Part shown: piece after piece, positions 16,744-33,775 of the stretch | Layout of the letters: each line of letters opens with the position of its first letter | How positions within the stretch are numbered: position 1 is the stretch's first letter | Source of the DNA: a virus | Lineage: Duplodnaviria > Caudoviricetes | DNA length: 64,000 bases | IMG/VR virus record: IMGVR_UViG_3300029288_000060 | Span: 128,001 to 192,000 of that record | Reading direction: 5' to 3' (one strand) | Position numbers and translations under genes: made by a program | The notes under the pieces: model-generated | Databases searched by the model: none | The model's input: only the letters and a program-made list of their open reading frames with translations | Told to the model about the DNA's origin: nothing

Positions 16744-17781
16744 TTATTCACCTTTTTCATTTCTTACATTTGAATGAATTAAGTTATCTGATGTTTCTTT
16801 ATCATTGGAAATCATTTCGCCCATCATGTAGCATGTATGGTTACATAATTTACAATATTTCTTTTTATCCGCAACTAAAGACTTTTTCAAATTTTTATTT
16901 ATTTCAGCGTTATGATCTAAAACATTAAGAATAGTAAAATTAAGAGCTAAATATTCAGCTCTGAGTCTTAAACATAAGCGCAAACAACCATCTGCATCAA
17001 CACACATTGTATGAAAATCTTTATCTAACTTACAATCATATTCACTTGGAAGGTAATCATACGTCATAGATAATAATGTATCTCTCATATGAACATTTAA
17101 TTTTTCATCAATAATTTTATCTAAAATATCTTTTAGTTCATTACTTTTATTTACTAATAATTTTTCATCTTCAATATTAGAGAAATCATAATATTCAGAT
17201 TTTGAAATATCAATGAACGTAATATCACTGTTAATACCTCTATTAGTTAATTCTTTAACTAATGGATATAAAAACTGATAATTATCATTTGTAACAGTTA
17301 TTTCAGCAACAACGTCATGTATTTTTTCCTTTAATTGTGTAAGTTTTTGTAAACCTTGCAAACTTTTCCTTGCTACGTCAGAATTTGCTCCTTCTATAAA
17401 AATAATTGGATCTACAGATGCAGTATATCCTTGTAAATAATCTACTTTTGATAATAATTCTTCAGTTTTCTTTTCATCAATATTATTACTAATTACTGTG
17501 TAAGCAATATTTTCATTGTTACAATAGTTAACAATCTCATAAAGATCTTCTCTTAGAGTTGGTTCCCCACCATAAAAAATCATAAAACAATCTGGATTAT
17601 GTTCTTTTAGTTTTTCTAAACCATAAATAACGGATTCTGTTGACATTTCATGTTCATGATAGTATCGCATATTAGGATATATGCCTGGTTTTGTTTTATA
17701 ATCTCTTACAAGTCTACAATAATCACACCTTAAATTACATCTTCTTGTGAGAATCCAGTTAACTATTTGAATTTTATTCAT
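16744..17781 (-). CDS. Radical SAM protein with Cys-rich (SPASM/twitch-like) C-terminus
   Basis: CNLRCDYC, YGGEPTL; C-terminal C...VDADG...C...CKLC...C. Confidence 0.88.
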   Translation of the reverse strand: MNKIQIVNWILTRRCNLRCDYCRLVRDYKTKPGIYPNMRYYHEHEMSTESVIYGLEKLKEHNPDCFMIFYGGEPTLREDLYEIVNYCNNENIAYTVISNNIDEKKTEELLSKVDYLQGYTASVDPIIFIEGANSDVARKSLQGLQKLTQLKEKIHDVVAEITVTNDNYQFLYPLVKELTNRGINSDITFIDISKSEYYDFSNIEDEKLLVNKSNELKDILDKIIDEKLNVHMRDTLLSMTYDYLPSEYDCKLDKDFHTMCVDADGCLRLCLRLRAEYLALNFTILNVLDHNAEINKNLKKSLVADKKKYCKLCNHTCYMMGEMISNDKETSDNLIHSNVRNEKGE

Positions 17782-17784
17782 TAA

Positions 17785-18480
17785 TTAATATCCTCCTTCG
17801 CCACTAATAACAATCACATCTTCTGTCTTAATATCTTCTTGTCCAATACCAGTGTCACATAATATTGTTTGCATCAAATCACCATCTTCATCGGATACTT
17901 GAAATTTAAGTAACTTAATTTCTTCAAACATATATTGATCAAATTTATCAGGATCTTCAAATTCACCTAAAATTTCTTTTTTAAGATTTTCATCTGATAT
18001 TGTATGTATATTAAAACATTTATTTAAGTCAAATATAGTAATTTTACAGTTTCGATCCATAAAAACTTCAATTTCTATTGGTTTATTTTTATCTTTTCTG
18101 CAGTCAGCGAGTATAAATGATGTAGAACTACTATTTGTTATAAAATCGCTTTTAAACTTCATTTCATTTCCACCATCCCTAAATAAAATTCTTACAACAT
18201 TTGGTCCTGGTCCTCGTAATCTGCTACCGCGACTAATTACATTTAAATTCAGCCTTGCTTTTACTTCTGCATTAAATTCTTCTGGTATTTGCTTTTCAAT
18301 ATATTCTTTAATATTAATTATTCTTTTTGAAATCAGATGGTTTATACTTTCCATATACCACTTAAAACTTACTCCATTTTTAATTTTGTCAGCATAATCC
18401 GGTTTACCTAATAAATTGCACATATATCTTCTTATTATTTTATATTTTTCAGTACTTTTAAAACCAATTGCCCTACCCAT
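17785..18480 (-). CDS. Hypothetical protein fused in frame to a TNSSS-motif protein (internal start at 18162)
   Basis: Internal MKFKSDFITNSSSTSF preceded by a GGTGG RBS-like sequence. Confidence 0.7.
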   Translation of the reverse strand: MGRAIGFKSTEKYKIIRRYMCNLLGKPDYADKIKNGVSFKWYMESINHLISKRIINIKEYIEKQIPEEFNAEVKARLNLNVISRGSRLRGPGPNVVRILFRDGGNEMKFKSDFITNSSSTSFILADCRKDKNKPIEIEVFMDRNCKITIFDLNKCFNIHTISDENLKKEILGEFEDPDKFDQYMFEEIKLLKFQVSDEDGDLMQTILCDTGIGQEDIKTEDVIVISGEGGY

Positions 18481-18484
18481 TGAT

Positions 18485-18940
18485 TTATACTCCTATAATA
18501 TCTCTCGCCATTTTTTCTAATGAAGGATCTAACCAATCTCTTTTCACTGGTAAATCATTAATAATTTCAGTAAGCACATATTCTAAATCCTCTGCCCTTT
18601 TCTTAATATAACTATCTTTTCTAATAATTTTATAATACTCCTTTTGAGTTAGATCATATTTTAAGCAAAAACATTTTAAACATTTATAATATCTTCCTAT
18701 ACTATCTATACATGGTCCATACCAATCATCATGCTTACACATTAATTGGTTAATAATTGTTTCTTTTGAACCTCCATATAAAACAAAAGATTTCTCTTCT
18801 TCTTCATCTTCAATTTTTCCTATTACTTTAATTGAAGATGATGAAATGTCTAATTCATCTAAAATAAATTGTCGACATGCTTCTTCTTGTTCTTTTTCAG
18901 TATCATATCCATCAAGAAACAAATCAATGATATATTTCAT
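18485..18940 (-). CDS. Hypothetical protein with Cys/His cluster
   Basis: 151-aa ORF, AGGAG RBS, CKH...CLKC. Confidence 0.6.
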   Translation of the reverse strand: MKYIIDLFLDGYDTEKEQEEACRQFILDELDISSSSIKVIGKIEDEEEEKSFVLYGGSKETIINQLMCKHDDWYGPCIDSIGRYYKCLKCFCLKYDLTQKEYYKIIRKDSYIKKRAEDLEYVLTEIINDLPVKRDWLDPSLEKMARDIIGV

Positions 18941-18977
18941 ATTTACTCCTTAAATTAATTTTAATTTAAGAACTTAG

Positions 18978-21185
18978 TTAAAACAATCTCATTGCTTCAT
19001 CTGCTTCAATTGAATCAATATGTCTATGAGAAATGATATTTATTGATTTATCTTCCACTAAGCTTCTTAAAAGGTTTGAAACATAACCAATATTCTGATC
19101 GTCAAGAGTATCAAAAATTTCATCTAATAACAAAATATTAGTTTTCATATCTTGAACACTATTTTGTAAATCACATAAGGATAATAAAATAGCTATATCT
19201 ATTATTCTAGTTTGACCGCCAGATAATTGCTTTCTATTATTAGCTTTAGTTTGAGTATCCAAAACATTTACATTTATTTTATCTCGATATTCCCCTGCTT
19301 TGGTTGTGGATATTGTGTCAAAACTGGCCTTATATCTACCACCAACCATTTCAAGATAATTCTCTACTGCAGCATTTAGAAATGGAATAGATTCATCAAT
19401 TAATAAAGACGGAATTCCAGTGGACGAAAACCCCATTTTCCAAAAATTTAAAACTTCTAATTCAGTCTCTGTTATAATTTTATCATTACTTAATTTTTTC
19501 TTTTCTTCTTCTAACTTTTCTTTTTCAGAAATATATCCAGTTAAAATTGTAAGATTATATTCTTCTTTGTCCTTACTTATAATTAATTGTTTATTTAATT
19601 CTATATCAGATTGAATTCTATTTATATTTTCTTGCCATTCCTTTTTCTTTGCTAATGATTCTAATAAATTATTTTTGTAAGAAAGAAGCTTATTTAAATT
19701 AGAATTCAACCCTTGTTTTTTAGAACTAATGTCTTCTTCTATTTCTTTCTTTTTTTCCATAAAGAGGGTGTTTAATTTTTCTTTTGCTTCGCTATGTTTA
19801 TTTGTTATTTCATGTTCTTTTTGATTAAAAACGTTTTCTGTATCTGTTTTCTTTGTTTCAAAAGATAGTTTTACTTCTTGAAATAAATTTGTTAACTGAT
19901 TTATTTTTTTATTTAATTCATAAATTGAAGTACGAGAATTCTTATTTTCTTCTTCTAATTGAGAATTTATTTTAATAAAATTTTCTAATGTATCAGTTAG
20001 ATGCTTTTTAATATCATCGTCTGTTAGTTTTTTACCGCAAGTAGGACATGTAGCTTCTGTTTTATTTAATGAGGTTTTTAATTTTAGAATTTCATCTTCA
20101 TTCTTTTTTATTTCTTTTTGGTTTGCGTCAATGGAATTTGTAAGTTGGATTTTATTATTATTTAGTTCTGTTTTGTCTCTATCTAGATTACTAGAATATT
20201 CTTGAAACTTTTTGGTCTCTTCTGAAATTAAATTTGTTTTATTTAACTTCTCTGTTGATATTAATTCTAAGGATTTATTATTAAACTCAGATTCCTTTAA
20301 ACTTTTCATACTCATTAAAGCATTTATTTTACTATTTAATTCTAAATCTATTTTTTCAATTTCACTTTGAATTGATGAAATTTTATCATTTGTATCATTC
20401 AACTCTAAATCATTGATATTATCAAAAAGTTTTTGTTTGTTATTTAACTCAGATAATTCTGCTTTTAATTGATTGATTTTTTGAGTTAAGCTATTAATTT
20501 CTTCATTTTTTCGTAAATAAAAGTTTCTTTTATCTTCCTCTGAAATGCAAATATTGTTTATAACATTCTCTATAAACTTACTATTTAAAACAATATTCTT
20601 ATCAATTTCATCTAATTTTAAAGTAACCTGTTTAATTCTTTTATTTGTTTCATCTTGATACATAACATAATTATCAAGTTGTAAAACTTTTCTAAAAATT
20701 TCTTTTCTATCAGAATCAGGTAAATCAGTAAAGAAATCCTTAACTTTTTGACCAAATAATAAAGTATTAGTAAATAATTTTTGAGGTATTAATATCTTTT
20801 CAATTTCAGGTAATACTTCTTTTTGACCTTTTTTATAAGGTGCGGTCATATCATTTTTAAAAAGAAGAACTGTATCCCCAAATTTTGAGTGTTTTACATA
20901 TCTATCAACTCTATAATTATCAAGAATCCCATTTAATTCAGATGTAAATTCAAGATATGTATGACAATTCTTTCCTACTGTATTATTAATCAAATCTGAT
21001 GAACGTGCGCCTTTGTCCGTTTCACCAAATAAACTAAATTGAACGCTAGCAAACATACTTGATTTTCCTGCTCCATTGGGACCTGTAATCAAAATAACTT
21101 TATTATTTTTAAATTCATATTCCATCAACTCTTTATAACAACAGAAATTTTCCATTCCTGTTTTTATAAAATTAATATTCTTCAT
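18978..21185 (-). CDS. Rad50/SbcC/gp46-like recombination ATPase
   Basis: Walker A GPNGAGKS, coiled coils with CPTC zinc hook, LSGG signature, LLLDE Walker B, ISH. Confidence 0.93.
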   Translation of the reverse strand: MKNINFIKTGMENFCCYKELMEYEFKNNKVILITGPNGAGKSSMFASVQFSLFGETDKGARSSDLINNTVGKNCHTYLEFTSELNGILDNYRVDRYVKHSKFGDTVLLFKNDMTAPYKKGQKEVLPEIEKILIPQKLFTNTLLFGQKVKDFFTDLPDSDRKEIFRKVLQLDNYVMYQDETNKRIKQVTLKLDEIDKNIVLNSKFIENVINNICISEEDKRNFYLRKNEEINSLTQKINQLKAELSELNNKQKLFDNINDLELNDTNDKISSIQSEIEKIDLELNSKINALMSMKSLKESEFNNKSLELISTEKLNKTNLISEETKKFQEYSSNLDRDKTELNNNKIQLTNSIDANQKEIKKNEDEILKLKTSLNKTEATCPTCGKKLTDDDIKKHLTDTLENFIKINSQLEEENKNSRTSIYELNKKINQLTNLFQEVKLSFETKKTDTENVFNQKEHEITNKHSEAKEKLNTLFMEKKKEIEEDISSKKQGLNSNLNKLLSYKNNLLESLAKKKEWQENINRIQSDIELNKQLIISKDKEEYNLTILTGYISEKEKLEEEKKKLSNDKIITETELEVLNFWKMGFSSTGIPSLLIDESIPFLNAAVENYLEMVGGRYKASFDTISTTKAGEYRDKINVNVLDTQTKANNRKQLSGGQTRIIDIAILLSLCDLQNSVQDMKTNILLLDEIFDTLDDQNIGYVSNLLRSLVEDKSINIISHRHIDSIEADEAMRLF

Positions 21186-21212
21186 ATAATTAAACCTTTC
21201 CTTTTAAAATAG

Positions 21213-21755
21213 TTAATCCCATAAATTCATATAATATTTTGCAAAAAGATTAAGACCATTTTGAAGTCTGTCGTAGTATTGATCTCTCTCTTCTTTATTA
21301 AGGTTATAGCTATCATCATATAAATCATCATGAATTTGCTGAAATGACCAAATCATTTCACCTAAAACCCAATCCCATCTTTTGAAAAAATTATCATCAT
21401 CTTCCCATTTTTCCACAGGTGCTGCTTCAGTCGATCTCAATCCAATTCCTTCTGGTACATCTTCGTCGGAAACGGGAGGAGCTCCGTGTTTTTCTTCATT
21501 GAACTTTTTTAACATTGGATAAATAATTTTTGATAATGTAAAATCCATTGACCATGTATCATAATTGTCTATTCTAATTTTTGTTTTAATTTTTTTCTTA
21601 TCTTGAATCCACTGACAAAAGTCTTTTACCCATGTATTCGATAACCATTTACCAATTTTATTACAGGTTTCTTGTGAAACACCTACTTTCTGTAACAACT
21701 CCGCAATTTGATATGGACCAATCCAATCCTTATAAGGACCAATATAAACTTTCAT
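21213..21755 (-). CDS. Phage hypothetical protein
   Basis: 180-aa Trp-rich ORF between the Mre11 and Rad50 genes. Confidence 0.65.
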   Translation of the reverse strand: MKVYIGPYKDWIGPYQIAELLQKVGVSQETCNKIGKWLSNTWVKDFCQWIQDKKKIKTKIRIDNYDTWSMDFTLSKIIYPMLKKFNEEKHGAPPVSDEDVPEGIGLRSTEAAPVEKWEDDDNFFKRWDWVLGEMIWSFQQIHDDLYDDSYNLNKEERDQYYDRLQNGLNLFAKYYMNLWD

Positions 21756-21763
21756 AATTTCTC

Positions 21764-22765
21764 CTATAATTCACAGTTATTCATAATATCTAAAGCTATA
21801 TTCTTATATAATTCTCTTTTATCAATTGATATTTCTTTTATTTCTAAAAATCTATCTATTTTATCAGAAGAACTCATTCCAGATGTAATTCCTCTATTAG
21901 TAATATCTTTTTCTCTTTTATCAATTACATCAAAAGATTTTTCAATATCACTCATATCTAAATCATCTGTTTTATTTAACTTGATATAATGTCCTTCCGT
22001 TTTAATTTTTAATATTTTTTTCATTACATCATCTTTATTTTCTTTTGTAACATCAAATTCAAAATATTTTTTATAACCAGTACTTGGTACTGAAAAATCT
22101 GCACCTGATTCAAAATCAATTACTTTAAAAAACTTTTCTTGATTTTTATCATTCCAATCCAGTTGAATTAAAGAACCTACATATTCACAATTACCAACAA
22201 TTTGTGGAGTATGATAATGTCCTAAATATACTTTCTTATACTTTTTTAAATCTTTTAGTCCAATATCCGAAACTAAAGAAATCCCACTACTTAAAGTAGC
22301 TTCATTTAAACCTAAATGAGCAATTGCATAATCCGCATCTCCATTTTTTAAGTCGTTAATCATTGTTGTAGGATTCCACGGAACAAATAACACATTTTCA
22401 ATTTTAATTGTTTCATGTATTGTGGTTACATTTATTTCATTGTCTAAACATTTAATCGCGGAAACTCCATTGCCAGTCATTGAACTTAGATCATGATTCC
22501 CTGACATAATTATCCAATGAATATCTTTATTGTTTCTTATAATATCTAACAAAATAGACTGAGCTACTGAATAAATAATTGACTTATTATGGAATATGTC
22601 TCCTATGATAATTATTTTATTAATTTTATTATCTCTGGCATAATTGATCATATTTAGAATTGCTAAGTATATCCCACTCAATCTCTCGGGAAGACCAGTA
22701 TTTGAATCAATTTTATCATTATTATAAGCACTTAAATGTAAATCTGCACATGCTATAGCTTTCAT
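21764..22765 (-). CDS. Mre11/SbcD/gp47-like metallophosphoesterase nuclease
   Basis: ADLH, GDIFH, GNHD and GHYH motifs. Confidence 0.92.
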   Translation of the reverse strand: MKAIACADLHLSAYNNDKIDSNTGLPERLSGIYLAILNMINYARDNKINKIIIIGDIFHNKSIIYSVAQSILLDIIRNNKDIHWIIMSGNHDLSSMTGNGVSAIKCLDNEINVTTIHETIKIENVLFVPWNPTTMINDLKNGDADYAIAHLGLNEATLSSGISLVSDIGLKDLKKYKKVYLGHYHTPQIVGNCEYVGSLIQLDWNDKNQEKFFKVIDFESGADFSVPSTGYKKYFEFDVTKENKDDVMKKILKIKTEGHYIKLNKTDDLDMSDIEKSFDVIDKREKDITNRGITSGMSSSDKIDRFLEIKEISIDKRELYKNIALDIMNNCEL

Positions 22766-22773
22766 ATCAACTC

Positions 22774-23892
22774 CTATTTTATTTGTGTTAATTCTGGAAA
22801 TGGTGATTTACTAATAAAAATATTTTTTACATTATGAATATTATTTTTAAGTATATGTATAAAATCTTCTTCTGAATATTCACAAAATAATTCTCCTTCA
22901 TACATAAAAGAAAAATCTTGAAGTAAATCTAAGCAAGTAACAACTAAATTAATAGGAGATTTTTTTATATAATCGTCTTTACTTATTGCGTAATTTATTA
23001 AATCTAAATCTAATATCCCCTTTCTAAAATAACCCTGAAATTCGTTATAATCATTTTTTTCATAAGCATTATCTTCAATTTTTGATTCAATATATTCAGT
23101 TGTCATTGGACCATTTCCATGTCTAGTTTGGTATGCTCTCGTAACTAACCATACTTCTGGTTTAAATCCCATTTCTAATATATTTTTACTTCCTGTATTT
23201 GATCTTGTGACATGAGGGAAAAAACCAAAATTTTGATCTAGCATTAAACCTTGAGATCCTTCAAAAATTAAAGTTGATGGTTGAAGAATTTCAATAGTTT
23301 TATATATATCATCACAACAAATTATATTTTTAGATTGTCTTATTTTTTCACATGATGATAAAAACTTATCTGTATGGTTTTCAGCTAAATGCATAGAGTA
23401 ATATTGTGCTAATAGATTCAGTTTTATTTTTAATATAGAGGGATAATGAATATCTTCAAATAATATTGAATGGTGATCTTCTTCTCTTTGAAACGTTTGT
23501 CCTACTCCAACCCCGCAGCTTCCATGTTTACGACCTAATTTATTTACTTCTATATTATATGCTTTTTCATAGGTGGTTGTCAATGGACATTTTTTATCTA
23601 CATAGAGTATTGGATTTACTTTTGTTTTTAAAATATCTAATTCATTAAGTACTCCAACAGGATCAAAAGTACAATATTTAGTCCAATAAGTAGGAATAGA
23701 TTGCAAACCCCCACTTCCAAAATTTGAAAAAACATGTTCTGAACCATTTTCTAACATAACATGGTGTCCAGCTTGTTGACCGCCTGAAAATCTAACTACT
23801 AATGATTTTTTATTTAATGAACAAAGATAACTTACAACTTTTCCCTTTCCTTCATCACCAAACCCGCTTCCAAATACTGCGACGTATTGCAT
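22774..23892 (-). CDS. purA: Adenylosuccinate synthetase-like protein
   Basis: FGDEGKGK, RFSGGQQAGH, GSCGVG, FEGSQG, FPHVTRS, TRHGNGP. Confidence 0.85.
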   Translation of the reverse strand: MQYVAVFGSGFGDEGKGKVVSYLCSLNKKSLVVRFSGGQQAGHHVMLENGSEHVFSNFGSGGLQSIPTYWTKYCTFDPVGVLNELDILKTKVNPILYVDKKCPLTTTYEKAYNIEVNKLGRKHGSCGVGVGQTFQREEDHHSILFEDIHYPSILKIKLNLLAQYYSMHLAENHTDKFLSSCEKIRQSKNIICCDDIYKTIEILQPSTLIFEGSQGLMLDQNFGFFPHVTRSNTGSKNILEMGFKPEVWLVTRAYQTRHGNGPMTTEYIESKIEDNAYEKNDYNEFQGYFRKGILDLDLINYAISKDDYIKKSPINLVVTCLDLLQDFSFMYEGELFCEYSEEDFIHILKNNIHNVKNIFISKSPFPELTQIK

Positions 23893-23910
23893 AATATAAC
23901 TCCTTAATTG

Positions 23911-23945
23911 AAATCATAGGGAGATTTTAGATCTCCCTATGATTT
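23911..23945. terminator. Intergenic hairpin between the vWA and purA-like genes
   Basis: 15-bp perfect stem AAATCATAGGGAGAT/ATCTCCCTATGATTT, 5-nt loop. Confidence 0.55.
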
Positions 23946-23951
23946 ATAAGA

Positions 23952-24821
23952 TTACAGTATCATATCATCATTATTTTCTTTTATATCATTTTTAATTTTA
24001 TTAACCTCAACAATATTATTACTTATTGATTTGTTTACAACATTAATTATGCTTTGAACAACATCTTCTTTTTTCTCTATAATAATAAGATTATCTTTAC
24101 CTATTAACTGCATCCAACCATCCATCACTGATTGTCGTCTGCCATTAGTACCCTGCTTCATATGAATATGATATACTTCATATTTTTCTCTTGCTTTATC
24201 TAGCAAAAACACATCTTCATATGTTTCACATTGACCAGGTCCCATTATATTTTCTAAAGATCTTTTTGGAAGACATTTCAGCGTAGGCTCATCGCCTATA
24301 GTAATAAGAATTCCTTTTTGTCCTCTTTTTTCAAAACAATCTATCGATGTATGTTTCCATGCAAAATACCAGGCTAGTAAATAACTTTCACCAGCATTTC
24401 CTCCACCGCCACTTTCAATCCATAAACTAGTCAACCAATGATCCAGTAATTTATCGCTTGATTCAAATTGTCCTATTTGTAGAGGTGACCGATCACATTC
24501 ATGATCACCAATACCAGTAAATAATACTTGTGTATCATTAATACCAGAATCCATAATTCCCTTCATAATTTCTGGTAAACCTTCTTTTACCAAATAATGT
24601 GGAATTGAACCCATTGATCCAGTGACGTCTAAGGCTAAAAACAAAGCCAAACTCAATGGATGTTCTTCAGAATCTCTGGATTCACGAATTTCTACACCAT
24701 TTGGATCCATTGCATTATTCACTGAACGCTGCTTAAATATTTCAGTTGGTGATTTAGTTGTGTATCCCATATCATGGGACCGCAAAGCTCTATCATAATA
24801 TGAATACGCGCCACTACCCAT
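23952..24821 (-). CDS. von Willebrand factor A domain protein
   Basis: MIDAS-like DVTGSMG, GGGGNAGESY, ITIGDE. Confidence 0.82.
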   Translation of the reverse strand: MGSGAYSYYDRALRSHDMGYTTKSPTEIFKQRSVNNAMDPNGVEIRESRDSEEHPLSLALFLALDVTGSMGSIPHYLVKEGLPEIMKGIMDSGINDTQVLFTGIGDHECDRSPLQIGQFESSDKLLDHWLTSLWIESGGGGNAGESYLLAWYFAWKHTSIDCFEKRGQKGILITIGDEPTLKCLPKRSLENIMGPGQCETYEDVFLLDKAREKYEVYHIHMKQGTNGRRQSVMDGWMQLIGKDNLIIIEKKEDVVQSIINVVNKSISNNIVEVNKIKNDIKENNDDMIL

Positions 24822-25177
24822 TATTCACCTCCAAATAAATAAGCATATCTTCTTTTTGCAATTTCAAGTTTGATTTCTTCATTTCTAATTTTAACACCAA
24901 GATCAAGATCTTTAATTACATAAGCATCTGCATCAAAATCTTTTGCAGGTTTGAGATTTAAAGCATTATCTGGACTAAGATCTAACATATTTTCTTGTTC
25001 TCGTCTCCATCGTTTAATTCCAATTTCAAGATTTTCAATTTCTCGTTTATAAAGTAGCTCAACATCCTCTGTTATTGCTACTGCGCGATCTCCCCTTATC
25101 TGCTTATTATTTCTGGTAAGACTTTGTACAAATGCACCTTTTAATTCTTGAGTTTCATTTTGTTCATTTGTTTCCAT
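24821..25177 (-). CDS. Coiled-coil protein coupled to the vWA gene
   Basis: Heptad-like sequence; 1-nt overlap with the vWA start. Confidence 0.65.
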   Translation of the reverse strand: METNEQNETQELKGAFVQSLTRNNKQIRGDRAVAITEDVELLYKREIENLEIGIKRWRREQENMLDLSPDNALNLKPAKDFDADAYVIKDLDLGVKIRNEEIKLEIAKRRYAYLFGGE

Positions 25178-25213
25178 GATATTCTCCTTTTTTAATAGAA
25201 TTACACAATTCTC

Positions 25214-25537
25214 TTACTTTTCATTTAAAATTTTTAAAATTTTTTGTGACATAGATTTATTTCCAATATTAATATAGGTTGGTTCATTATCTGGTCCATA
25301 AGTTTCTTCAATAACATAACCCATCTCTTCAATAATTTTATGCATTTTAAAAAACTCATCATATTCAATATACTCATCAAAGTTAATATAATAATTTTGA
25401 AGCGTTCTAATTAATTCATCTGTACCTATATCTACATGTATATCTTTTAACTTATCATATAATTTTGTTGGATCTGGTATACATACAATAAATGAACAAG
25501 AACTACTATTGGTTACAAAATCTTGCTTAATTTTCAT
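25214..25537 (-). CDS. TNSSS-motif protein
   Basis: MKIKQDFVTNSSSCSF N-terminus. Confidence 0.75.
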   Translation of the reverse strand: MKIKQDFVTNSSSCSFIVCIPDPTKLYDKLKDIHVDIGTDELIRTLQNYYINFDEYIEYDEFFKMHKIIEEMGYVIEETYGPDNEPTYINIGNKSMSQKILKILNEK

Positions 25538-25743
25538 TGTTTACCTCCTTGAGTAATTAACTTTATTAAATCTTTTTCAGATATAGTTAATTCTAAAATG
25601 TTTGGTACAGTACAACACCCAGCACTATAACATGAAAGGTGATAATAATACCCAAACGAATGATATGTCGCTTTAATTATTTTTAATTTATGACCTAGAA
25701 AATAAACTAATTCTCCTTTTTTATAAATGTTTTTCATACTCAT
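25534..25743 (-). CDS. Small hypothetical protein
   Basis: 69-aa ORF overlapping neighbours, YKKGELV start. Confidence 0.5.
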   Translation of the reverse strand: MSMKNIYKKGELVYFLGHKLKIIKATYHSFGYYYHLSCYSAGCCTVPNILELTISEKDLIKLITQGGKQ

Positions 25744-26092
25744 TAATAAGTAATTCCATTTTGTTTTTCATTCGTTCACTGTTTATGTTTATTATCATGT
25801 CTGAATAATCAGCTCCATGGTCACTACGCACTATAGAATATTTATCTAATATATTGTATATTTCATCATAGAATTGTTTAAGTTCATTATAATCAGTAAA
25901 ATAAATATTATACTCCGCGTAATCTGCTTCCATACCATAGTCAACTACCCCACCACTTTTTATATAATTCAAATATTTTTCTAATTTTATATTTAAATCA
26001 TTATCTTCAGATTTTACTTGAATATCCATTGGTAATGCAATTATATAACAGGTAGAACTACTATTAGTTACAAAATCTTGTTTGATTTTCAT
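25721..26092 (-). CDS. TNSSS-motif protein
   Basis: MKIKQDFVTNSSSTCY N-terminus. Confidence 0.75.
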   Translation of the reverse strand: MKIKQDFVTNSSSTCYIIALPMDIQVKSEDNDLNIKLEKYLNYIKSGGVVDYGMEADYAEYNIYFTDYNELKQFYDEIYNILDKYSIVRSDHGADYSDMIININSERMKNKMELLINEYEKHL

Positions 26093-26422
26093 TTAATCAC
26101 AACTCAATATTTCAGCATTATGTTTTTCTAAAAATGGTTTTAACGATCTTATTTCAGCTCCTCCATATGGTATAGAGAACTGAATAATACTTCCATTATT
26201 TATTATAATATCATTCATTCTAATAAATAATTCATCCTCTTCTTCTAATTCAAAATCATCTATGATAGATTGTAATTCTTCTTTATTTGAACAAATTTTT
26301 GTATATGTCAAACAATTTAAGAGATCAAATAAAGGGTTATTCTCCTTTTCTATTTGTGTTGAACAAGAGATTATATATGATGTACTAGAACTATTAGTTA
26401 CAAAATCCTGCTTAATTTTCAT
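26093..26422 (-). CDS. TNSSS-motif protein
   Basis: MKIKQDFVTNSSSTSY N-terminus. Confidence 0.75.
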   Translation of the reverse strand: MKIKQDFVTNSSSTSYIISCSTQIEKENNPLFDLLNCLTYTKICSNKEELQSIIDDFELEEEDELFIRMNDIIINNGSIIQFSIPYGGAEIRSLKPFLEKHNAEILSCD

Positions 26423-26426
26423 TGAT

Positions 26427-27857
26427 TTACTCCTTTAAAATCTCAATGACTTTAGTTTCATCCAATAACATCTTTTTTCCATCATCTGATATAAATAAAT
26501 AATTAATCCCCCAATTTTTCTTTTTATAAAAATTTATTCTATTAAATAATGTTTGACGTATTTCTTTTACTCCAATATCCACTATATCAATTATTATTGG
26601 TTGTGATTTTCCCTCTTTAATTCTTAAGACTCTCCCGCACATTTGTTCAATATTAGATATTGGGCTTGTCATAATTAAACAATCTTTTTCGACGAGGTCT
26701 ACTCCATCTCGACATTTACCAGGAGTAGAAAATGTTAATTGTGGTTTTGTCTGATCTAATTTAGCACTGCCTACAAACATTCCTTTATCAATAGATTTAA
26801 AATCTTTATATAATAATTCTAATAATTTTATTCTCTCCGCCATAAATATAATTTGTTTATCTTCTTTACAAAACTTATTTATTAAAGCTTTACATATAGA
26901 TATAAACAACTTAGATTTTTTTAATATTGTAAGATATCTAGATTTTTGAAAAAATCCTCCATAGTATAAATAATAATAACTTTTTGGTAATATTCCAAAA
27001 TTAGTTAGTAAAACAGTTACTCTTGCATCCATTGTAGATGATTTACCTTCTGGTACATAAACTTTTCCAAGATGATATTCAATTATATCACCATTACCAT
27101 CCCATCGATATGGAGTTGCGCTAAGACCGAATACTATTTTTGCAGGGATGTGAATAGAACATTCTGCAAAAGTAGGTGCCCCTACAGTGGTATGTACCTC
27201 ATCAGCAATAAAAATTCCAATTTTTGCTTTATTTAATTCTATTAAAAATTCTTCTCTTTTACTTTTTAAAATAGAAGTAAATGTTTGATCTGTACAAATG
27301 ATAATAGATTTTGATAAAACCTCTTTAAAATTATTTGAGCTTAACCTTCCAATTTCATTTTTATCAATATCTGTATAACCTAAAAAACCTTGTTTTTTGT
27401 CTTGTTCACCAGGGCCTATCCATTGTTGAACAAGTGAATCCCTATGCACTAAAATAAAAGTTTTCTTTTTTAACTCAGCACAAACATATACACTAATAAC
27501 AGTTTTTCCAGAACCAGGATTAGCTTGAATAATTCCATTATTATGTGTAAGCATATAATCTACAATAGTTTTTTGTAAATCATCTCTTAATTGAATATTA
27601 TGGTTTATGTTAATATCTAGACCATCAGGGATATTTTCATTAATTTTAAAGTCCTTAATATATTCTTCTATTGGAAAAAATCTTGGAATCTTTAATACAT
27701 TAGGACCTTCAAGAAAATAATGATTTGTGATAAATGTTGACCTTTGGTATTCTTTGCTATGTCTTGTTAATTTTCTTTTAATATCATCATACCATTGGTT
27801 TTCTTCAAATTTTTTTCTTGAAATAACTATTCCTGATGTTTTATCTAATATTATCAT
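26427..27857 (-). CDS. Superfamily 2 helicase (UvsW/XPB-like)
   Basis: PGSGKT, DEVH, LSATP.R.DG and EQMCGRVLR motifs. Confidence 0.88.
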   Translation of the reverse strand: MIILDKTSGIVISRKKFEENQWYDDIKRKLTRHSKEYQRSTFITNHYFLEGPNVLKIPRFFPIEEYIKDFKINENIPDGLDININHNIQLRDDLQKTIVDYMLTHNNGIIQANPGSGKTVISVYVCAELKKKTFILVHRDSLVQQWIGPGEQDKKQGFLGYTDIDKNEIGRLSSNNFKEVLSKSIIICTDQTFTSILKSKREEFLIELNKAKIGIFIADEVHTTVGAPTFAECSIHIPAKIVFGLSATPYRWDGNGDIIEYHLGKVYVPEGKSSTMDARVTVLLTNFGILPKSYYYLYYGGFFQKSRYLTILKKSKLFISICKALINKFCKEDKQIIFMAERIKLLELLYKDFKSIDKGMFVGSAKLDQTKPQLTFSTPGKCRDGVDLVEKDCLIMTSPISNIEQMCGRVLRIKEGKSQPIIIDIVDIGVKEIRQTLFNRINFYKKKNWGINYLFISDDGKKMLLDETKVIEILKE

Positions 27858-27887
27858 ACTAATATTCCTTTATAATTCTAAATTATT

Positions 27888-28298
27888 TTATTCCTTATAT
27901 TCAGCTTTTGAATCTGGAGCTTCCCATATAATAATAGAATGAATTTCAACATTTTCTGGCAATATGTTTTCTGTTTTAAATTTATTATACAACCACTTAC
28001 AAAGATTTTCAGCTGTTGGATCTCCTTTAAAATAATTAATAAAACATAAATCCGGATTTATACTTTTATCATTTTCATTTATACACATGCCATGATCCCA
28101 ACTTGAAAGCATATTATTTACTAATACTTTTAGTTCAGAAAAATCCATAACCATATCAAATTTATTTAAAATATTTGACTTTATTGTAACCTCTACTTGA
28201 AACAGATGACCATGAAACTTAGAACATTTACTCAATCCTTCAAGTTTACTTAATCTGTGGCCCATTGGAAATGAAAATATCTTAGTCACGTAATACAT
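27888..28298 (-). CDS. queD: 6-carboxy-5,6,7,8-tetrahydropterin synthase
   Basis: Start MYYVTK at 28298 with GAGGAG RBS; GHRL, CSKFHGH, MVMDFSELK, WDH, PTAENL, IWE. Confidence 0.9.
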   Translation of the reverse strand: MYYVTKIFSFPMGHRLSKLEGLSKCSKFHGHLFQVEVTIKSNILNKFDMVMDFSELKVLVNNMLSSWDHGMCINENDKSINPDLCFINYFKGDPTAENLCKWLYNKFKTENILPENVEIHSIIIWEAPDSKAEYKE

Positions 28299-29199
28299 TA
28301 ATAACTCCTCCTTCATCTTTATACTCAACAATATTATTTTCTGTCAATATTCTTATAACAACAACATTAATATTTAGTTTTCTTAACATAACAAATAAAT
28401 AAAATACCATATTTTCAACTTGAAGATTTTGATTTGTATTTATTTTTTCAACAACCAAATTTTTTAAAATTATTGATATTTCATCAAAATCTATATTTGT
28501 AAAATTATTAAAATCTACTCTTTTACCTATAGCTAATTCTAATATAATTTTTTTATCTATTGTATAAGATAAATCATAATTCATGTCCAATTCTATTTTT
28601 TTGTATATTGTAATCTTTGGACCAGAATGGATTTTCCTATGACAACTCTCACATAATAATATTAAATTTTCTTCAGTATTGTTTCTATGATTTTCATCTA
28701 AATGGTGAACTCTCAACGATTCAAAACTATTACAAATTGCACACTGATTGCCATATTTATTTCTTATTTTATCTCTATAATTATTTTTATTAGTAAGTTT
28801 TTTATTTTTGCAAACTTTTGATGCACATTGACGACTACAAAACCTAGCTTTAGACGTGATTTTTGTATAAAAAGCTTCACCGCAATATTCACAGTTTACC
28901 GAAATAATAGGTGTTTTTTTAAATTCTGCTGCGCATTTGACTGAACAAAATGCTTGATTCCATTTTATTGGATTTCCACAACACTTACATAGATTTCTTT
29001 CATTGCTGTATTGAACTTTAATTTGATTTTCTATACATATTTTTGATAATTTTTCACTTCTGAAAATCATGTTTGGGTATTCTTCTCTGAATAATTTAAA
29101 CGTTTTACCATGGGTTTTTAAATGAGCTTCTGTTATTTGTTTTGTTTTTTTACCACAATAAGGACACTCCACATAATCAATACCATTTATTTCTTCCAT
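28282..29199 (-). CDS. Zinc-finger HNH endonuclease fused to a degenerate QueD-like domain
   Basis: CPYC..H...H finger, two FCSxxC motifs, CAIC..VHHLD.N..NN...NL..LC..CH...H; the last ~110 aa align by eye with the adjacent QueD. Confidence 0.75.
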   Translation of the reverse strand: MEEINGIDYVECPYCGKKTKQITEAHLKTHGKTFKLFREEYPNMIFRSEKLSKICIENQIKVQYSNERNLCKCCGNPIKWNQAFCSVKCAAEFKKTPIISVNCEYCGEAFYTKITSKARFCSRQCASKVCKNKKLTNKNNYRDKIRNKYGNQCAICNSFESLRVHHLDENHRNNTEENLILLCESCHRKIHSGPKITIYKKIELDMNYDLSYTIDKKIILELAIGKRVDFNNFTNIDFDEISIILKNLVVEKINTNQNLQVENMVFYLFVMLRKLNINVVVIRILTENNIVEYKDEGGVINVLRD

Positions 29200-29278
29200 T
29201 TTATCTCCTTTCTTATTTTTGTTCTATTTAGAAAGGAGGATTGTTATTTTTAATCCTATGCCCTACGCATAAAAATAT

Positions 29279-29599
29279 TTAAACCTCCTTTGAGCCATAC
29301 ATAATATTGTAGTGTTTGTCTTTAGTCTCATCGTAATTAGTTATATTAATTTCTACATGATAACCATTTGATTTACAATAATCTTGTAAACACTGCATTA
29401 AAATACTAAGATTGTTTTTTACACACTCATCCTTATATTTTGCTCTTTTACCTATGGCTTTTTCTAACCAATTTAGTTTCTTTCCGTCACCATGACACTT
29501 TTTACATGTCTCATATAAATTAATTGTTCTAATTATTTTAGTTCCTTTACCATTACATTCTTCACAAGTTTTCATATTGATCCACCACAAATTGTTCAA
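29279..29599 (-). CDS. DnaJ-type zinc finger protein
   Basis: Two CxxCxGxG repeats (CEECNGKG, CKKCHGDG). Confidence 0.65.
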   Translation of the reverse strand: MNNLWWINMKTCEECNGKGTKIIRTINLYETCKKCHGDGKKLNWLEKAIGKRAKYKDECVKNNLSILMQCLQDYCKSNGYHVEINITNYDETKDKHYNIMYGSKEV

Positions 29600-30875
29600 T
29601 ATTATTGATGTTATCTTTTATACTTTTAAGTTTCTCAGATAATTCATTGAAGTCTGCTTTAAAAGATAAAAGTTTGGTTATCCTATATTTTTGAAATAAT
29701 TCTTTAATTTTTATTGTTTCTTCTTTAATTTCATCTGAAATTAAACGAATTATCTCATCTGTGTCTAATTCTTTATTTGTTAAATACTTTTTTAAGGATG
29801 GTTTCACTTTTTCTAATAATTTTACTTCAATAATTGAGTCTATTAACTTCAATTCAATAGATTTTAACATTTTCATATTTACTTTTGTATAAATTTCAAA
29901 AGTATTTTTTATCATTTTATCAATAGATATATTTTTTACATTTTTTGTTTTATGATCTACAACCACCGTATCAAAAGTTAAACTACTTGTCATTACATCA
30001 TTTAATTTCTTAGCAAAAGATTTGAAAATTTGATCTCTATTTCTTGATTTTAACACTTCAAAAACAATATGAGTACCACCATTTTCAGATGAAGATTCAT
30101 CTATCCAACCAATATCTTGATTAGTTAATTCTTTTTCAAATTTACCTAAAATTGTTTCAAACTTTTTTCCAGGTGGGAATGTTTTAATTACTGCTTTGCA
30201 TTTAGATGGTTCCAATTTAAAAATTCCTTGAAAACTTATTTGTCCTTTTCCAGTCGTTAAAAGATTTTCAAAATCTTTATCAGTTGACAATAACTTACAA
30301 TTAGTTAAAGGTTTAATTATTGGATTTTCCTTTTTCTTTCCTAATAAAAATAATAATCTATCTCTTAAATCTTTAATACTATAACAAGGAATTAATGTTT
30401 TATAACCAAATCCAATTCCTGTTGTATAATCTTTTCCTAGAAAACATAAAGGAAACATAGTTGGAAAATATTCTGGTTCATCATCTAATTCTGCTTCCAC
30501 CCAGTCCACATAATCAACTAATCTTAAAGAAATATCATAAATTTGTTTATTTAATTTACATTCAGTGTATCTCATAGCAGCAGGAGGAGATGGCTCAACA
30601 CCAATATTATTTCCAAAGTTTCCTTGTCCATCTAAAAAACCTTGATTTACTAATTGACATATTGTTCCATATGAACTTGCGTGTGGATGCCATCTACCTA
30701 AAGTATTGCCATCTACTCTTGCTGATTTGACAAATTTATCTTTTGCCATTGTATACGCTGATAATAAAACTCTTCTTTCAACGGGTTTTAATCCATCAAT
30801 ATCTAGAGGAAATGCTCTAGAATGGTTAACATATTTACCATATTCTTTATATAAACTTGGAATTAATTTATCCAA
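29562..30875 (-). CDS. Type IIA topoisomerase subunit A (GyrA/ParC/gp52-like), no C-terminal pinwheel
   Basis: DGLKPVERR, KSAR, HPH, GQGNFG, AAMRYTE catalytic Tyr; only 437 aa. Confidence 0.92.
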   Translation of the reverse strand: MDKLIPSLYKEYGKYVNHSRAFPLDIDGLKPVERRVLLSAYTMAKDKFVKSARVDGNTLGRWHPHASSYGTICQLVNQGFLDGQGNFGNNIGVEPSPPAAMRYTECKLNKQIYDISLRLVDYVDWVEAELDDEPEYFPTMFPLCFLGKDYTTGIGFGYKTLIPCYSIKDLRDRLLFLLGKKKENPIIKPLTNCKLLSTDKDFENLLTTGKGQISFQGIFKLEPSKCKAVIKTFPPGKKFETILGKFEKELTNQDIGWIDESSSENGGTHIVFEVLKSRNRDQIFKSFAKKLNDVMTSSLTFDTVVVDHKTKNVKNISIDKMIKNTFEIYTKVNMKMLKSIELKLIDSIIEVKLLEKVKPSLKKYLTNKELDTDEIIRLISDEIKEETIKIKELFQKYRITKLLSFKADFNELSEKLKSIKDNINNIEQFVVDQYENL

Positions 30876-31126
30876 TTTTCTTCTCCTCTGTAAACAATTT
30901 CATCTAAATATCTCTCTAAGGATGCTGATCCTTTTCCAGTTAAAATTTCTACATCATTTTTATAATATGTCCAATCAGACATTCTTACATCAACTTTTTC
31001 TTCATTCTTTATCCATTGATGCGACCAAGTTTTTTGACCTACCCCATTATAAGTAAATTCATATTTTCTTAAAATTTTATTATAATTTTCAATTTCAATT
31101 ATAATATCAGTAAGGTTAACATTCAT
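30863..31126 (-). CDS. Hypothetical protein
   Basis: 87-aa ORF between the topoisomerase genes. Confidence 0.55.
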   Translation of the reverse strand: MNVNLTDIIIEIENYNKILRKYEFTYNGVGQKTWSHQWIKNEEKVDVRMSDWTYYKNDVEILTGKGSASLERYLDEIVYRGEENWIN

Positions 31127-31377
31127 TCAATATCTCCATTTTCTCTAATTTTCGTATTTTCATATGGAGATACAATTCTTCTATAAAATTCTAATTTCGC
31201 GCATTCAATTTCACCTATTATAGAAGATATTGTACTAAACTTTTTATTTCGTTCAGTCAACTTCTTAAAAATTGAATATAAACAATATGTTAACTCACCT
31301 GGTTTATCAATCACTTCAACTAAATTTTCTATTTGTTTATCAAATATTTTCCTAGAATCTTCTTTTATATATGGCAT
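31123..31377 (-). CDS. Small phage protein
   Basis: MPYIK...GELTY...ECAKLEFYRR....YE...I..NGD pattern seen in small phage proteins. Confidence 0.65.
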   Translation of the reverse strand: MPYIKEDSRKIFDKQIENLVEVIDKPGELTYCLYSIFKKLTERNKKFSTISSIIGEIECAKLEFYRRIVSPYENTKIRENGDIE

Positions 31378-31379
31378 AT

Positions 31380-33167
31380 TTACCCTTTTAATAATTCTCT
31401 TTTAATATTTACATCAGAAAATAATTGAGTAATTTTTTCTATATTTTCTGTATATTCAACTTTTTGTAGTTTTCTAGTTTTCTCATCAAGACAACATATT
31501 TTTAATTGCCATGAATTCAACTCTCCTAACCCTTTCAATCTTATAATATTTTTTCCTTCTTGTCTTGATTTAGTTAATTCTTCTGCTGTCCACAATGGAG
31601 TAAAAGATTTTTTTTCATTAATTGCATATAATGGAATTAATGATAGATAAAAATGACCTTGTTTAATTACTTCAGGAACTAATATTGCTAAAGCAATTGT
31701 CATTAAACAAAAGATATGTCCACCATCTGCATCAGGATCTGTTGTACAAATAATTTTATCATATTTTAACTTTGTTATGTCAAAATTTGGACCAATTCCA
31801 GTACCTAATGAACCTATTAATTCACTTATTTCTTTATTTTTTAAAATATCATCTTTATTATTAATAATGGATGGAATTTTACCCCTTAATGGTAATACAG
31901 CATGTAACCTAGAATTTCTACATTCAATAAAACCGCCACCAGCAGAGTCTCCTTCAACTACATATAATTCACCACTGTTCCCTGTACAATCTCTTAGTTT
32001 TGTAAACTTAGTTGAAGCACGTTTACCATTAATTGGTCCAGTTTTTATTTTTTTGGAATCTAATTTCCTTCGATAATCATTAAAAAACTCTAAAAGAGAT
32101 TTTAAATCTTCTGGATTTTGATTAAAATATTTATCCAGCTCCATTTTAATTTTTGGCATAAGATTATTAAATGTATCTTTTCTACTAATTAACTTACATT
32201 TATTTTGAGCTGAATAATCTGGCTTTTCCAGTTCTAAAGAAAAATATATTCTTAATCCAGATAAACTATCCCCAGGTTGAAATTTAAAATCAGTTTTTTT
32301 AGTTTTATTAATAAAATAATCTTTAAGGATATCATAAAAACAGTTAACATGTGTCCCACCATCATCCACCGGTAAAAGATTAATAGATGAAATAATTCTT
32401 GGAGTTATAGAACCATCGAAGGAATAACAAAATCTAACATTGAATTTTTCAAAATTATCTTTTGTGTTAATATCAATAATTTTAGAAAGCTCACTATCTC
32501 CATTTAAACAATATTTTTTAAAAAATTCATCTTTTGTTAACTTAATAACTTCTCTTTTATCATCAACATTTAATACTAGTGTTGTATCTGGAATCTCAAC
32601 AGATGCTATTAATAATCTTTTTCGTACTCTATCAATATCTGGAATTATTGATTCGAAAAATTTTCTGCTTGGTTTAAACATTATTTTTGTTGAAAATGGT
32701 GGATCTCCATTAAAATCTTCAATTTCTTTTTGTTTTAATTTAGTATCTTCAAATATATATTTGGCATGCTTTTTATCTCTATATATTTCAATAATATAGA
32801 AATCTGATAAAGCTAATATTGTGATTAACCCTATTCCATTTTTTCCTGCAACAATTTTATAAGCAGTTTTTGATGAATTGAATTTTGCGCCTGTATGTAA
32901 TTTAGAAGAAATTAATATAGGGATATCATTTTCTAATGGTATTCCTCTCCCATTATCCATCACACTGCATATATTAGTTTTTGTATCAATGTTAACAGCA
33001 ATAATTTTTGCATATCCAGAAATTGCTTCATCAAGAGCATTATCAAGAGCTTCCTCAATTAAATGAACAGGATTGGATGTTATTCCTATATACATTCCTG
33101 TAGATTCTTGAACATGTTCAATATCAGTTAGAGTTTTAATATCTTTATGTGTATAAGTCTTTGTCAA
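31380..33167 (-). CDS. Type IIA topoisomerase subunit B (GyrB/ParE-like)
   Basis: GMYIG, EALDNALDE, DNGRGIP, GGTH, EGDSAGG, PLRGK, DPDADGGHI, KGLGE. Confidence 0.94.
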   Translation of the reverse strand: MTKTYTHKDIKTLTDIEHVQESTGMYIGITSNPVHLIEEALDNALDEAISGYAKIIAVNIDTKTNICSVMDNGRGIPLENDIPILISSKLHTGAKFNSSKTAYKIVAGKNGIGLITILALSDFYIIEIYRDKKHAKYIFEDTKLKQKEIEDFNGDPPFSTKIMFKPSRKFFESIIPDIDRVRKRLLIASVEIPDTTLVLNVDDKREVIKLTKDEFFKKYCLNGDSELSKIIDINTKDNFEKFNVRFCYSFDGSITPRIISSINLLPVDDGGTHVNCFYDILKDYFINKTKKTDFKFQPGDSLSGLRIYFSLELEKPDYSAQNKCKLISRKDTFNNLMPKIKMELDKYFNQNPEDLKSLLEFFNDYRRKLDSKKIKTGPINGKRASTKFTKLRDCTGNSGELYVVEGDSAGGGFIECRNSRLHAVLPLRGKIPSIINNKDDILKNKEISELIGSLGTGIGPNFDITKLKYDKIICTTDPDADGGHIFCLMTIALAILVPEVIKQGHFYLSLIPLYAINEKKSFTPLWTAEELTKSRQEGKNIIRLKGLGELNSWQLKICCLDEKTRKLQKVEYTENIEKITQLFSDVNIKRELLKG

Positions 33168-33187
33168 TGTATTGTAATCCTCCTAAT

Positions 33188-33775
33188 TTATTTAGAGTAA
33201 TCTATAAACGTCCATAAATCATTTCTTCTAACTATTTTCCCAACTTTATTTTCATTTATTTCTAAATCATATATGGTCGAATATTGTCCCATAGGATCTC
33301 CAGTATCCCAGCCGTCTCCCATGATTTTAGAAGGATGTTGAGCAAAAGAAAATTCTAAATCACCTTCTACTTCTTTGAATGCCTCTTTAAAAATTTCAAT
33401 AATTTTATCTATATAAAAATAACCGGGAGACTCAGTTAATATGTCTGATAATAAAGAAATAGAACAAAATAATTCATTAACAATTCCTTCTACATCAGCT
33501 AATGAATAACTAGAAATTTCCATTCCAAAATCAAGATAACCATTATTTTCATCATTTGAGTAATTACTAACAATTTTTGCTTTTAAAAAACATGCATTAT
33601 CAAAATTAGAAATTTTAGAAGGCTTTTCAATAGAGAATTTTTCATCAATATTATTTATAATTTTCTCTAAACATATTTCATTTTTTAAATTATGAGGTTT
33701 TAAGGAACAATTATATTGTAAAATAAAACTTGTACTAGAACTATTTGTTACAAAATCAGTTTTGATTTTCATCAA
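33188..33775 (-). CDS. TNSSS-motif protein
   Basis: MKIKTDFVTNSSSTSF N-terminus. Confidence 0.75.
   Translation of the reverse strand: MMKIKTDFVTNSSSTSFILQYNCSLKPHNLKNEICLEKIINNIDEKFSIEKPSKISNFDNACFLKAKIVSNYSNDENNGYLDFGMEISSYSLADVEGIVNELFCSISLLSDILTESPGYFYIDKIIEIFKEAFKEVEGDLEFSFAQHPSKIMGDGWDTGDPMGQYSTIYDLEINENKVGKIVRRNDLWTFIDYSK

Follow-up and report, generated by a model that had tools for sequence, protein, structure and literature searches.

A portable N-terminal tail on dissimilar small proteins of a jumbo phage and its linkage to radical SAM genes

Why should five small proteins of one phage, dissimilar in every other respect, all begin with the motif MKxKxDF(V/I)TNSSS, and does the radical SAM gene lying directly behind one of them encode an enzyme acting on it? 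The locus raising this question lies in a 64,000-nucleotide stretch of viral DNA (hereafter the window), corresponding to bases 128,001-192,000 of one viral contig, which is 268,812 bp long and has a G+C content of 27.8%. Related metagenomic contigs, 100-277 kb long, share its gene order and carry multisubunit RNA-polymerase genes, and the source is therefore taken to be a jumbo phage. An earlier note on the window had suggested that the motif is a portable tag and the neighbouring radical SAM enzyme its maturase. In the present analysis the tag, its position at residue 1, the selection acting on it at the peptide level and its genomic linkage to two clades of radical SAM enzymes, here called A2 and A3, are all directly observed. 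The first part of the suggestion held in phages, bacteria and archaea, where the tag is found on dissimilar bodies; the second held in part, the tag being tightly linked to radical SAM genes, but with its main partner in a different clade, encoded outside the window.

The tail and the proteins that carry it

A six-frame scan of the window retrieved five copies of the pattern MK[IF]KxDF[VI]T before NSSS, all of them minus-strand copies whose start codons lie at 18162, 25537, 26092, 26422 and 33772, precisely where the five proteins had been reported to begin. The genes are as follows.

17785..18162, minus strand: tagged protein 1, 125 amino acids (aa), body subfamily "cluster 4"; separated by 3 nt from the start of the radical SAM gene
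25214..25537, minus strand: tagged protein 2, 107 aa, cluster 6, located after the helicase gene
25721..26092, minus strand: tagged protein 3, 123 aa
26093..26422, minus strand: tagged protein 4, 109 aa, cluster 8
33188..33772, minus strand: tagged protein 5, 194 aa, body subfamily "cluster 5"

Orthologs of tagged protein 2 occupy the same position, after the helicase gene, in related phages. An open reading frame (ORF) of 69 aa with no family match (25534-25743, minus strand) lies between two of the tagged genes, overlapping each by a few bases.

The whole genome contains ten copies of MK(I/F)KxDF(V/I)TNSSS, five in the window and five elsewhere. Their alignment shows no variation at M1, K2, K4, D6, F7, T9, N10, S11, S12 and S13 and next to none at I17, the consensus reading D-F-(V/I)-T-N-S-S-S-(T/S)-S-(F/Y). 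Conservation drops to zero beyond about residue 17, leaving a shared tail of 13-17 residues, in agreement with the initial observation that the five proteins have only their N-terminus in common. For the three invariant serines AGY and TCN codons are both in use, and synonymous variation extends to the codons for K, D, T and N, which indicates selection on the peptide and not on the DNA. A DNA- or RNA-level element behind the conserved start was rejected on this codon usage.

The tail is by no means confined to this phage. At E <= 0.001, a profile dominated by the tag matched 4,744 protein clusters (clustered at 50% identity); among the best 150 of these the match starts at residue 1 in nearly all cases, and protein lengths range from 74 to 288 aa. 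Long fusions are rare, since a search for longer fused forms produced only two weak matches, without domains. The tagged proteins belong to no family in Pfam, NCBIfam or PADLOC, and within PHROGs only a weak N-terminal match to phrog_7397 (function unknown) was found. A tblastn search of 50,697 cultured-phage records with a tagged protein gave chance-level matches only, the low-complexity filter probably masking the serine run, and a literature search for "TNSSS" returned unrelated uses only and no paper on the tag.

Behind the tail the proteins diverge, as had been noticed, into a hydrophobic strand followed by dissimilar acidic bodies. Those of the window are 107-194 aa in total length, with isoelectric points of 4.3-4.6, and their bodies, all acidic, are 21-30% identical in forced global alignments. 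Clustering of 123 tagged ORFs, taken from this genome and 80 related loci and deprived of their first 20 residues, resulted in about 11 multi-member subfamilies. Profile-profile comparison by hhalign of the eight larger ones gave no pair a probability above 10%. As an exception, the cluster 4 body (17785-18162), with its tag masked, resembles the tagged protein of the bacterial cassettes described below (hhalign 89%, E 2e-6).

Two bodies were modelled with AlphaFold2 (AF2). The 194-aa protein (33188-33772) was predicted with a local confidence score (pLDDT) of 89.8 and a global one (pTM) of 0.85, and the 125-aa protein (17785-18162) with 78.6 and 0.70, respectively. In both models residues 1-9 fall below a pLDDT of 50, and the NSSS turn runs straight into the first strand, at residues 15-24 in the former and 13-20 in the latter. 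Low confidence in residues 1-9 next to confident bodies makes the tail look like a free appendage ahead of the first strand. In a fold search with the 194-aa model the best matches were sandwiches of the AdoMetDC type (Z 8.8, root-mean-square deviation 2.8 over 107 aa; six of the top eight rows), which, Z 8.8 being a middling value, we read as a shared arrangement only; Foldseek against the PDB gave only weak matches, with a TM score of 0.34 or less. The 125-aa model had no match above Z 4.2. The two bodies, as modelled, thus show no sign of a common fold.

These data bear on the view that there is no portable tag at all, and that the proteins form one old family whose N-terminus is merely its best-conserved piece. 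In its favour, the conserved stretch continues into the first strand (residues 13-20), a C-terminal core is common to cluster 4 and the bacterial family, and several bodies feature a Gly/Asp-rich motif near the C-terminus. Eight body subfamilies without one convincing profile-profile pair, together with an AdoMetDC-like arrangement in one body and no comparable match for the other, make a single family very improbable. Tagged protein 5 contains, near its own C-terminus, a second conserved motif, GDGWDxGDPMGQY.

Linkage of the tail to two clades of radical SAM enzymes

Two radical SAM genes of this phage lie close to tagged genes, one within the window and one outside it.

16744..17781, minus strand: radical SAM enzyme, 345 aa, jumbo-phage clade A2 (Pfam Radical_SAM 47.3 bits, cut-off 29.5)
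18163..18480, minus strand: in-frame segment upstream of tagged protein 1, 106 codons with no stop before the tag (ORF open to 18480, 231 aa in total)
genome 94,548-95,540 (L162:4548-5540), minus strand: second radical SAM/SPASM gene, clade A3, E 3e-79
genome 95,857-96,390, 92,569-92,916 and 92,192-92,572: tagged genes flanking the A3 enzyme

Linkage was measured in samples that rest on this exact form of the tag and on sequence stretches of uneven length. Starting from the tag, 31 of 45 viral loci contained an A3 gene and 8 more an A2 gene, so that 39 of 45 have a member of either clade within 10 kb. When viral sequences were collected by the DNA pattern of the tag alone, either clade was present in 50 of 80 stretches. 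At the level of whole records, 61 of the 73 distinct contigs in this sample hold a radical SAM gene somewhere (contig names were cross-referenced by hand); eleven of the 12 contigs lacking one are fragments estimated to be 1-34% complete, and the twelfth is 14 kb long, without a completeness estimate. Starting from the enzyme, all 8 loci seeded by A3 hold 1-6 tagged genes, phage A3 genes being located just upstream of arrays of 1-8 tagged genes. The association with radical SAM genes, on whose existence the earlier note had made its proposal depend, is therefore found in both directions. A 63-kb contig of a Promethearchaeota bin (L092) carries six tagged genes within 5 kb, and neither clade was detected within 10 kb by hidden Markov models (HMMs); it is possibly an exception to the linkage, or a case of a third enzyme type.

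Tagged genes and radical SAM genes are also neighbours in cellular genomes. Searches of prokaryotic genome bins seeded with the tag yielded 26 loci, 22 of which are not phage-like, and in 20 of these 22 a radical SAM/SPASM gene lies directly downstream of the tagged gene. The cassette consists, in order, of an Avs2-like STAND NTPase, a tagless paralog of about 135 aa, the tagged protein, also of about 135 aa, and a radical SAM/SPASM enzyme of about 350 aa, which belongs to clade A3; the large NTPase matches PADLOC Avs2 at 2e-24. Its hosts, spread over many phyla, include Clostridia, Bacteroidales, Nitrospiraceae, Sulfurimonas, Anaerolineae and others. In these loci (L093-L116, from bacterial and archaeal bins) separate genes for a trypsin-like protease and a metallo-beta-lactamase are sometimes found upstream, and the cassette looks like an undescribed defence-type operon.

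The tail might also be a sorting or processing signal with no part in radical SAM chemistry, such as a capsid-targeting leader of the T4 kind, or a protease or degradation signal. In T4, diverse internal proteins, which are present in virions, have only a short N-terminal capsid-targeting sequence in common, a leader cut off by the prohead protease, and the present tail is likewise N-terminal, unstructured and found on many paralogs. Its presence in bacterial cassettes that are not phage-like, where it accompanies an Avs2-like NTPase and a radical SAM gene, and a linkage that holds in both directions make such a signal very improbable.

Members of A3, to which we refer as the canonical clade, are recognized by an N-terminal extension of about 45 residues, the motifs GGGNPNQHP and PCSF, and a full SPASM domain. 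The window enzyme is not one of them: the A2 HMM matches none of 16 canonical members, and hhalign of the two clades gives 26% over 75 core columns, only the generic core being in common. It is nonetheless a member of the radical SAM superfamily (PF04055), with a CxxxCxxC motif at C15/C19/C22, invariant in 36 homologs. The extra C-terminal cysteines first noticed in the sequence are real, seven in number, five of them invariant in the same 36 homologs. We compared them with the SPASM/twitch criterion C-x9-15-G-x4-C ... C-x2-C-x5-C-x3-C ... C, which denotes one or two auxiliary 4Fe-4S clusters: a partial SPASM/twitch-like C-terminus is conserved, as C250-x14-G265-x4-C270 and C310-x2-C313-x3-C317, and the motif's final portion is absent. 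No match to Pfam SPASM (PF13186) was obtained at E <= 1, and every NCBIfam match was far below its cut-off. The enzyme has 492 homologs at E <= 0.001, the best 120 of which are 47-71% identical to it; tblastn against the 50,697 cultured-phage records gave no match at 1e-5.

The junction between tagged gene 1 and the window enzyme is tight. The tagged gene ends with GGA GGA TAT TAA, followed by TTA and then by the ATG of the radical SAM gene, exactly the 3-nt spacing originally described, and the Shine-Dalgarno sequence of the latter, GAAGGAGGA, sits inside the end of the former. Translation of the window enzyme is coupled to that of one tagged gene. The start of that gene at 18162 is less clear-cut: a start codon and the motif are found there, but the reading frame stays open upstream to 18480. 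The 106 additional residues are homologous to a separate 112-aa gene of a related phage (L018:9685-10023; BLASTP 2e-9), where it is the small gene directly upstream of the radical SAM gene. Gene callers list the fused 231-aa form (P0247), which the tag profile matches from residue 107. As the in-frame codons correspond to a free-standing gene, the first tag copy is either a fusion or the product of an internal start at 18162.

In a sample of 80 IMG/VR loci carrying clade A2, 45 contain one or more tagged genes no further than 10 kb away; each of these genes is upstream, on the strand of the enzyme, in one of two places, namely after the helicase gene or directly before the enzyme. Among 74 informative members, the window counted, 28 have a tagged gene directly upstream, always in the same orientation, with gaps of -46 to +21 nt in the 25 measured. 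This slot is occupied by bodies of three different subfamilies, and at least seven changes of state can be placed on the enzyme tree. The association of the tag with this particular clade, which had been suggested as a check, is thus only partial, and the closest relatives of the window enzyme have no adjacent tag. As to large records, 15 of 22 that bear A2 match the DNA pattern of the tag (two of them by single matches without the full motif), and 13 contain an A3 enzyme; in a complete genome of 277 kb the two lie about 55 kb from each other.

Possible roles of the enzymes and of the tail

The explanation we favour is that MKIKxDF(V/I)TNSSS is a portable N-terminal tail, placed before beta-strand 1 in small acidic proteins that are otherwise unrelated, and that it is most likely a recognition site for dedicated radical SAM enzymes, and probably their modification site too. 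The phage would encode two such tag-linked enzymes, the canonical radical SAM/SPASM enzyme (genome 94,548-95,540) and the divergent one of the window (16744-17781), which may be a second enzyme on the same tail, as HXS, an antiphage system discussed below, uses two radical SAM enzymes on one protein. We infer that these enzymes bind the tail and change it covalently, docking on K2/K4/D6/F7 and acting on T-N-S-S-S just outside the folded body. The linkage points to an undescribed system modifying whole proteins. Taken as a whole, this explanation seems to us slightly better than an even bet, while the chances that the window enzyme itself acts on the tail are about even.

Several points weigh against it. 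The closest A2 relatives (59% identity) have a non-tagged 109-aa gene directly upstream, and others have SbcC there. Three A2 records, estimated to be 48%, 59% and 82% complete, contain neither tags nor A3. A2 and A3 have no detectable specific relationship, and at least one of the two tag links could therefore be secondary; as both clades co-occur in the most complete genomes, the role of the window enzyme is inseparable from that of the canonical one on genomic grounds. The linkage counts, such as 39 of 45 viral loci, stand without a background rate of radical SAM genes in viral contigs, and many of the loci come from related phages and are non-independent. Binding and modification of the tail are themselves deduced from genomic context. 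A complex prediction for the window enzyme with two 4Fe-4S clusters, SAM and the adjacent tagged protein scored 0.00 and carries no weight either way.

It is accordingly conceivable that only the canonical enzyme, outside the window, serves the tag, while the window enzyme has another job in the replication/nucleotide module, acting on a nucleotide, a cofactor or some other protein; the adjacent tagged genes would then mark a permissive insertion spot in a syntenic block. A2 does sit in a conserved block (topoisomerase, PTPS, helicase, SbcD, SbcC, radical SAM, WYL_2 protein), tags or not, 46 of the 74 members have no directly adjacent tagged gene, the 82%-complete record has a window-type enzyme and no tag, and the window enzyme is unrelated to the canonical clade. 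A mere insertion spot fits less well with a junction ranging from overlap to a 21-nt gap, a Shine-Dalgarno sequence inside the tagged gene and a constant orientation, nor would it predict the three body subfamilies in the slot, with their repeated changes on the tree. The adjacent protein is, in addition, a body-level homolog of the tagged protein of bacterial cassettes. On balance, we regard a canonical enzyme working alone on the tag as doubtful, yet deserving serious consideration.

The main mechanistic rival concerns the tail rather than the enzyme. Instead of a substrate the tail may be a docking handle, with the tagged proteins as exchangeable adaptors or regulators which bring the radical SAM enzyme to different targets bound by their variable bodies, as F-box proteins do for a ubiquitin ligase. 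One invariant short handle on many diversified bodies, the presence of several tagged genes per enzyme, and the pairing of a tagged protein with a tagless paralog in bacterial cassettes would all suit adaptors. A strictly invariant T-N-S-S-S at a free N-terminus, in contrast, is more like a reaction site than a binding epitope, and known radical SAM/SPASM enzymes modify their neighbouring small proteins (PMC13128918, PMC13692751). We consider the adaptor model unlikely.

If the tail is modified, as we favour, the lack of a conserved cysteine in the tail makes thioether chemistry unlikely; candidate reactions are oxidation of serine or threonine, cross-linking through ether or carbon-carbon bonds, and epimerisation. 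From their small, acidic and diversified bodies one may suspect that the proteins bind or inhibit factors of the host or of the phage. A more far-reaching model, to be taken as tentative, is a general protein-tagging system, in which a free 13-residue tail is recognized and covalently altered by one or two radical SAM enzymes, dozens of unrelated small proteins being thereby armed or switched. It is possible, if doubtful, that the change is a cross-link, an oxidised serine or a reactive group, with jumbo phages having up to ten substrates per genome. Avs2-like defence cassettes carry this tail too, and we hold with equal reserve the thought that phage and host rely on a common modification code in their conflict.

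Radical SAM/SPASM enzymes have their reputation mainly as makers of small peptide natural products, cases with a whole protein as substrate being few. The tail described here, short and strictly conserved, is carried by thousands of protein clusters, both in large phages and in bacterial operons of the immune type. Should it be modified, phage-host conflict would involve a widespread post-translational modification that has so far escaped study, and the enzyme and its tag might be put to use as a pair. With its short tag, its small soluble substrates and its two candidate enzymes encoded by a single genome, the system is readily testable.

Nearly all genes of the window region lie on the minus strand. 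Its replication/recombination block contains topoisomerase II subunits, a PTPS/QueD-like gene, an HNH protein, the helicase, an adenylosuccinate-synthetase homolog, SbcD and SbcC. The adenylosuccinate-synthetase homolog (22774-23892, minus strand; Pfam 1.8e-47) is found within this phage replication module. The HNH protein (28282-29199, minus strand) is 305 aa long and rich in zinc ribbons, and some 50 nt of its ORF coincide with the start of the PTPS gene. The PTPS/QueD-like gene (27888-28331, minus strand; 4e-29) and a small CxxxCxxC ORF elsewhere in the genome (3,634-4,335, plus strand), which could be QueE-like, hint at a 7-deazaguanine pathway. Two further CxxxCxxC ORFs are located at genome positions 78,908-79,657 (minus strand) and 241,045-242,301 (plus strand); if these ORFs are real radical SAM enzymes, the phage may have up to five. 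In two related loci (L006 and L010) and their relatives, two ThiF-like genes and a JAB-like gene, parts of ubiquitin-like conjugation, are found with multisubunit RNA-polymerase genes 5-10 kb downstream of the radical SAM gene.

Comparison with known systems

Enzymes of the anSME/AtsB type are SPASM-type radical SAM proteins which oxidise a serine or cysteine of a folded protein, a feature that brings them close to the chemistry considered here. They differ in their recognition motif, (C/S)-x-(P/A)-x-R, which is missing from the tag; membership of this family fails on the substrate motif, no tag serine being followed by Pro/Ala-x-Arg. No anSME model was found among the best 25 of 44 NCBIfam matches (E <= 0.1) for the window enzyme. 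The Ophion defence system was also set aside, its architecture being different, with a radical SAM protein accompanied by PHP and PRTase proteins.

Maturases for peptides that are made on ribosomes and modified after translation (RiPPs), such as PapB, StrB/SuiB, PqqE and MftC, share with our system, as does the CrpC/CrpA pair, a radical SAM enzyme with auxiliary-cluster cysteines encoded beside small proteins that have a common recognition segment. CrpC/CrpA is a case in which the substrate of a radical SAM/SPASM enzyme is a whole protein, such enzymes not being restricted to peptides (PMC13692751). In contrast to RiPP precursors, which are short and unstructured, with a leader and a core, the presumed substrates are folded proteins of 107-194 aa, and the conserved piece is a 13-residue, cysteine-free tail. 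An assignment as RiPP precursor and maturase was rejected, as the modelled bodies are confidently folded and no PqqD/RRE family was found in the enzyme or its neighbours.

In the HXS antiphage system the protein HxsA is matured by the radical SAM enzymes HxsB and HxsC (Nat Commun 2026, PMC13128918). The likeness lies in the maturation of a whole protein by radical SAM enzymes in phage-host conflict, in the use of two such enzymes per substrate and in the N-terminal processing of the HXS substrate. The latter, however, has His-Xaa-Ser repeats and a peptidoglycan-binding domain, and is exported, whereas here a single N-terminal tail is found on many unrelated, cytoplasmic-looking proteins, most copies being in phages. 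Membership of HXS was rejected: tagged proteins have no HxS repeats, and HxsB and HxsC score 26 bits each (E about 1e-6), against cut-offs of 370 and 268, respectively.

A further parallel is offered by the modules for peptide processing in NTP-dependent conflict systems described by Kaur, Burroughs, Iyer and Aravind in 2020 (PMC7159879), which are vWA-MoxR-linked and characterized by a conserved C-terminal peptide of the FxSxx, RxD or acidic type. In these too, a radical SAM-SPASM gene lies beside variable small proteins with a conserved short peptide, near STAND/AP-ATPase genes. The system described here differs from them in its N-terminal TNSSS, in its Avs2-like NTPases and in its great expansion in jumbo phages.

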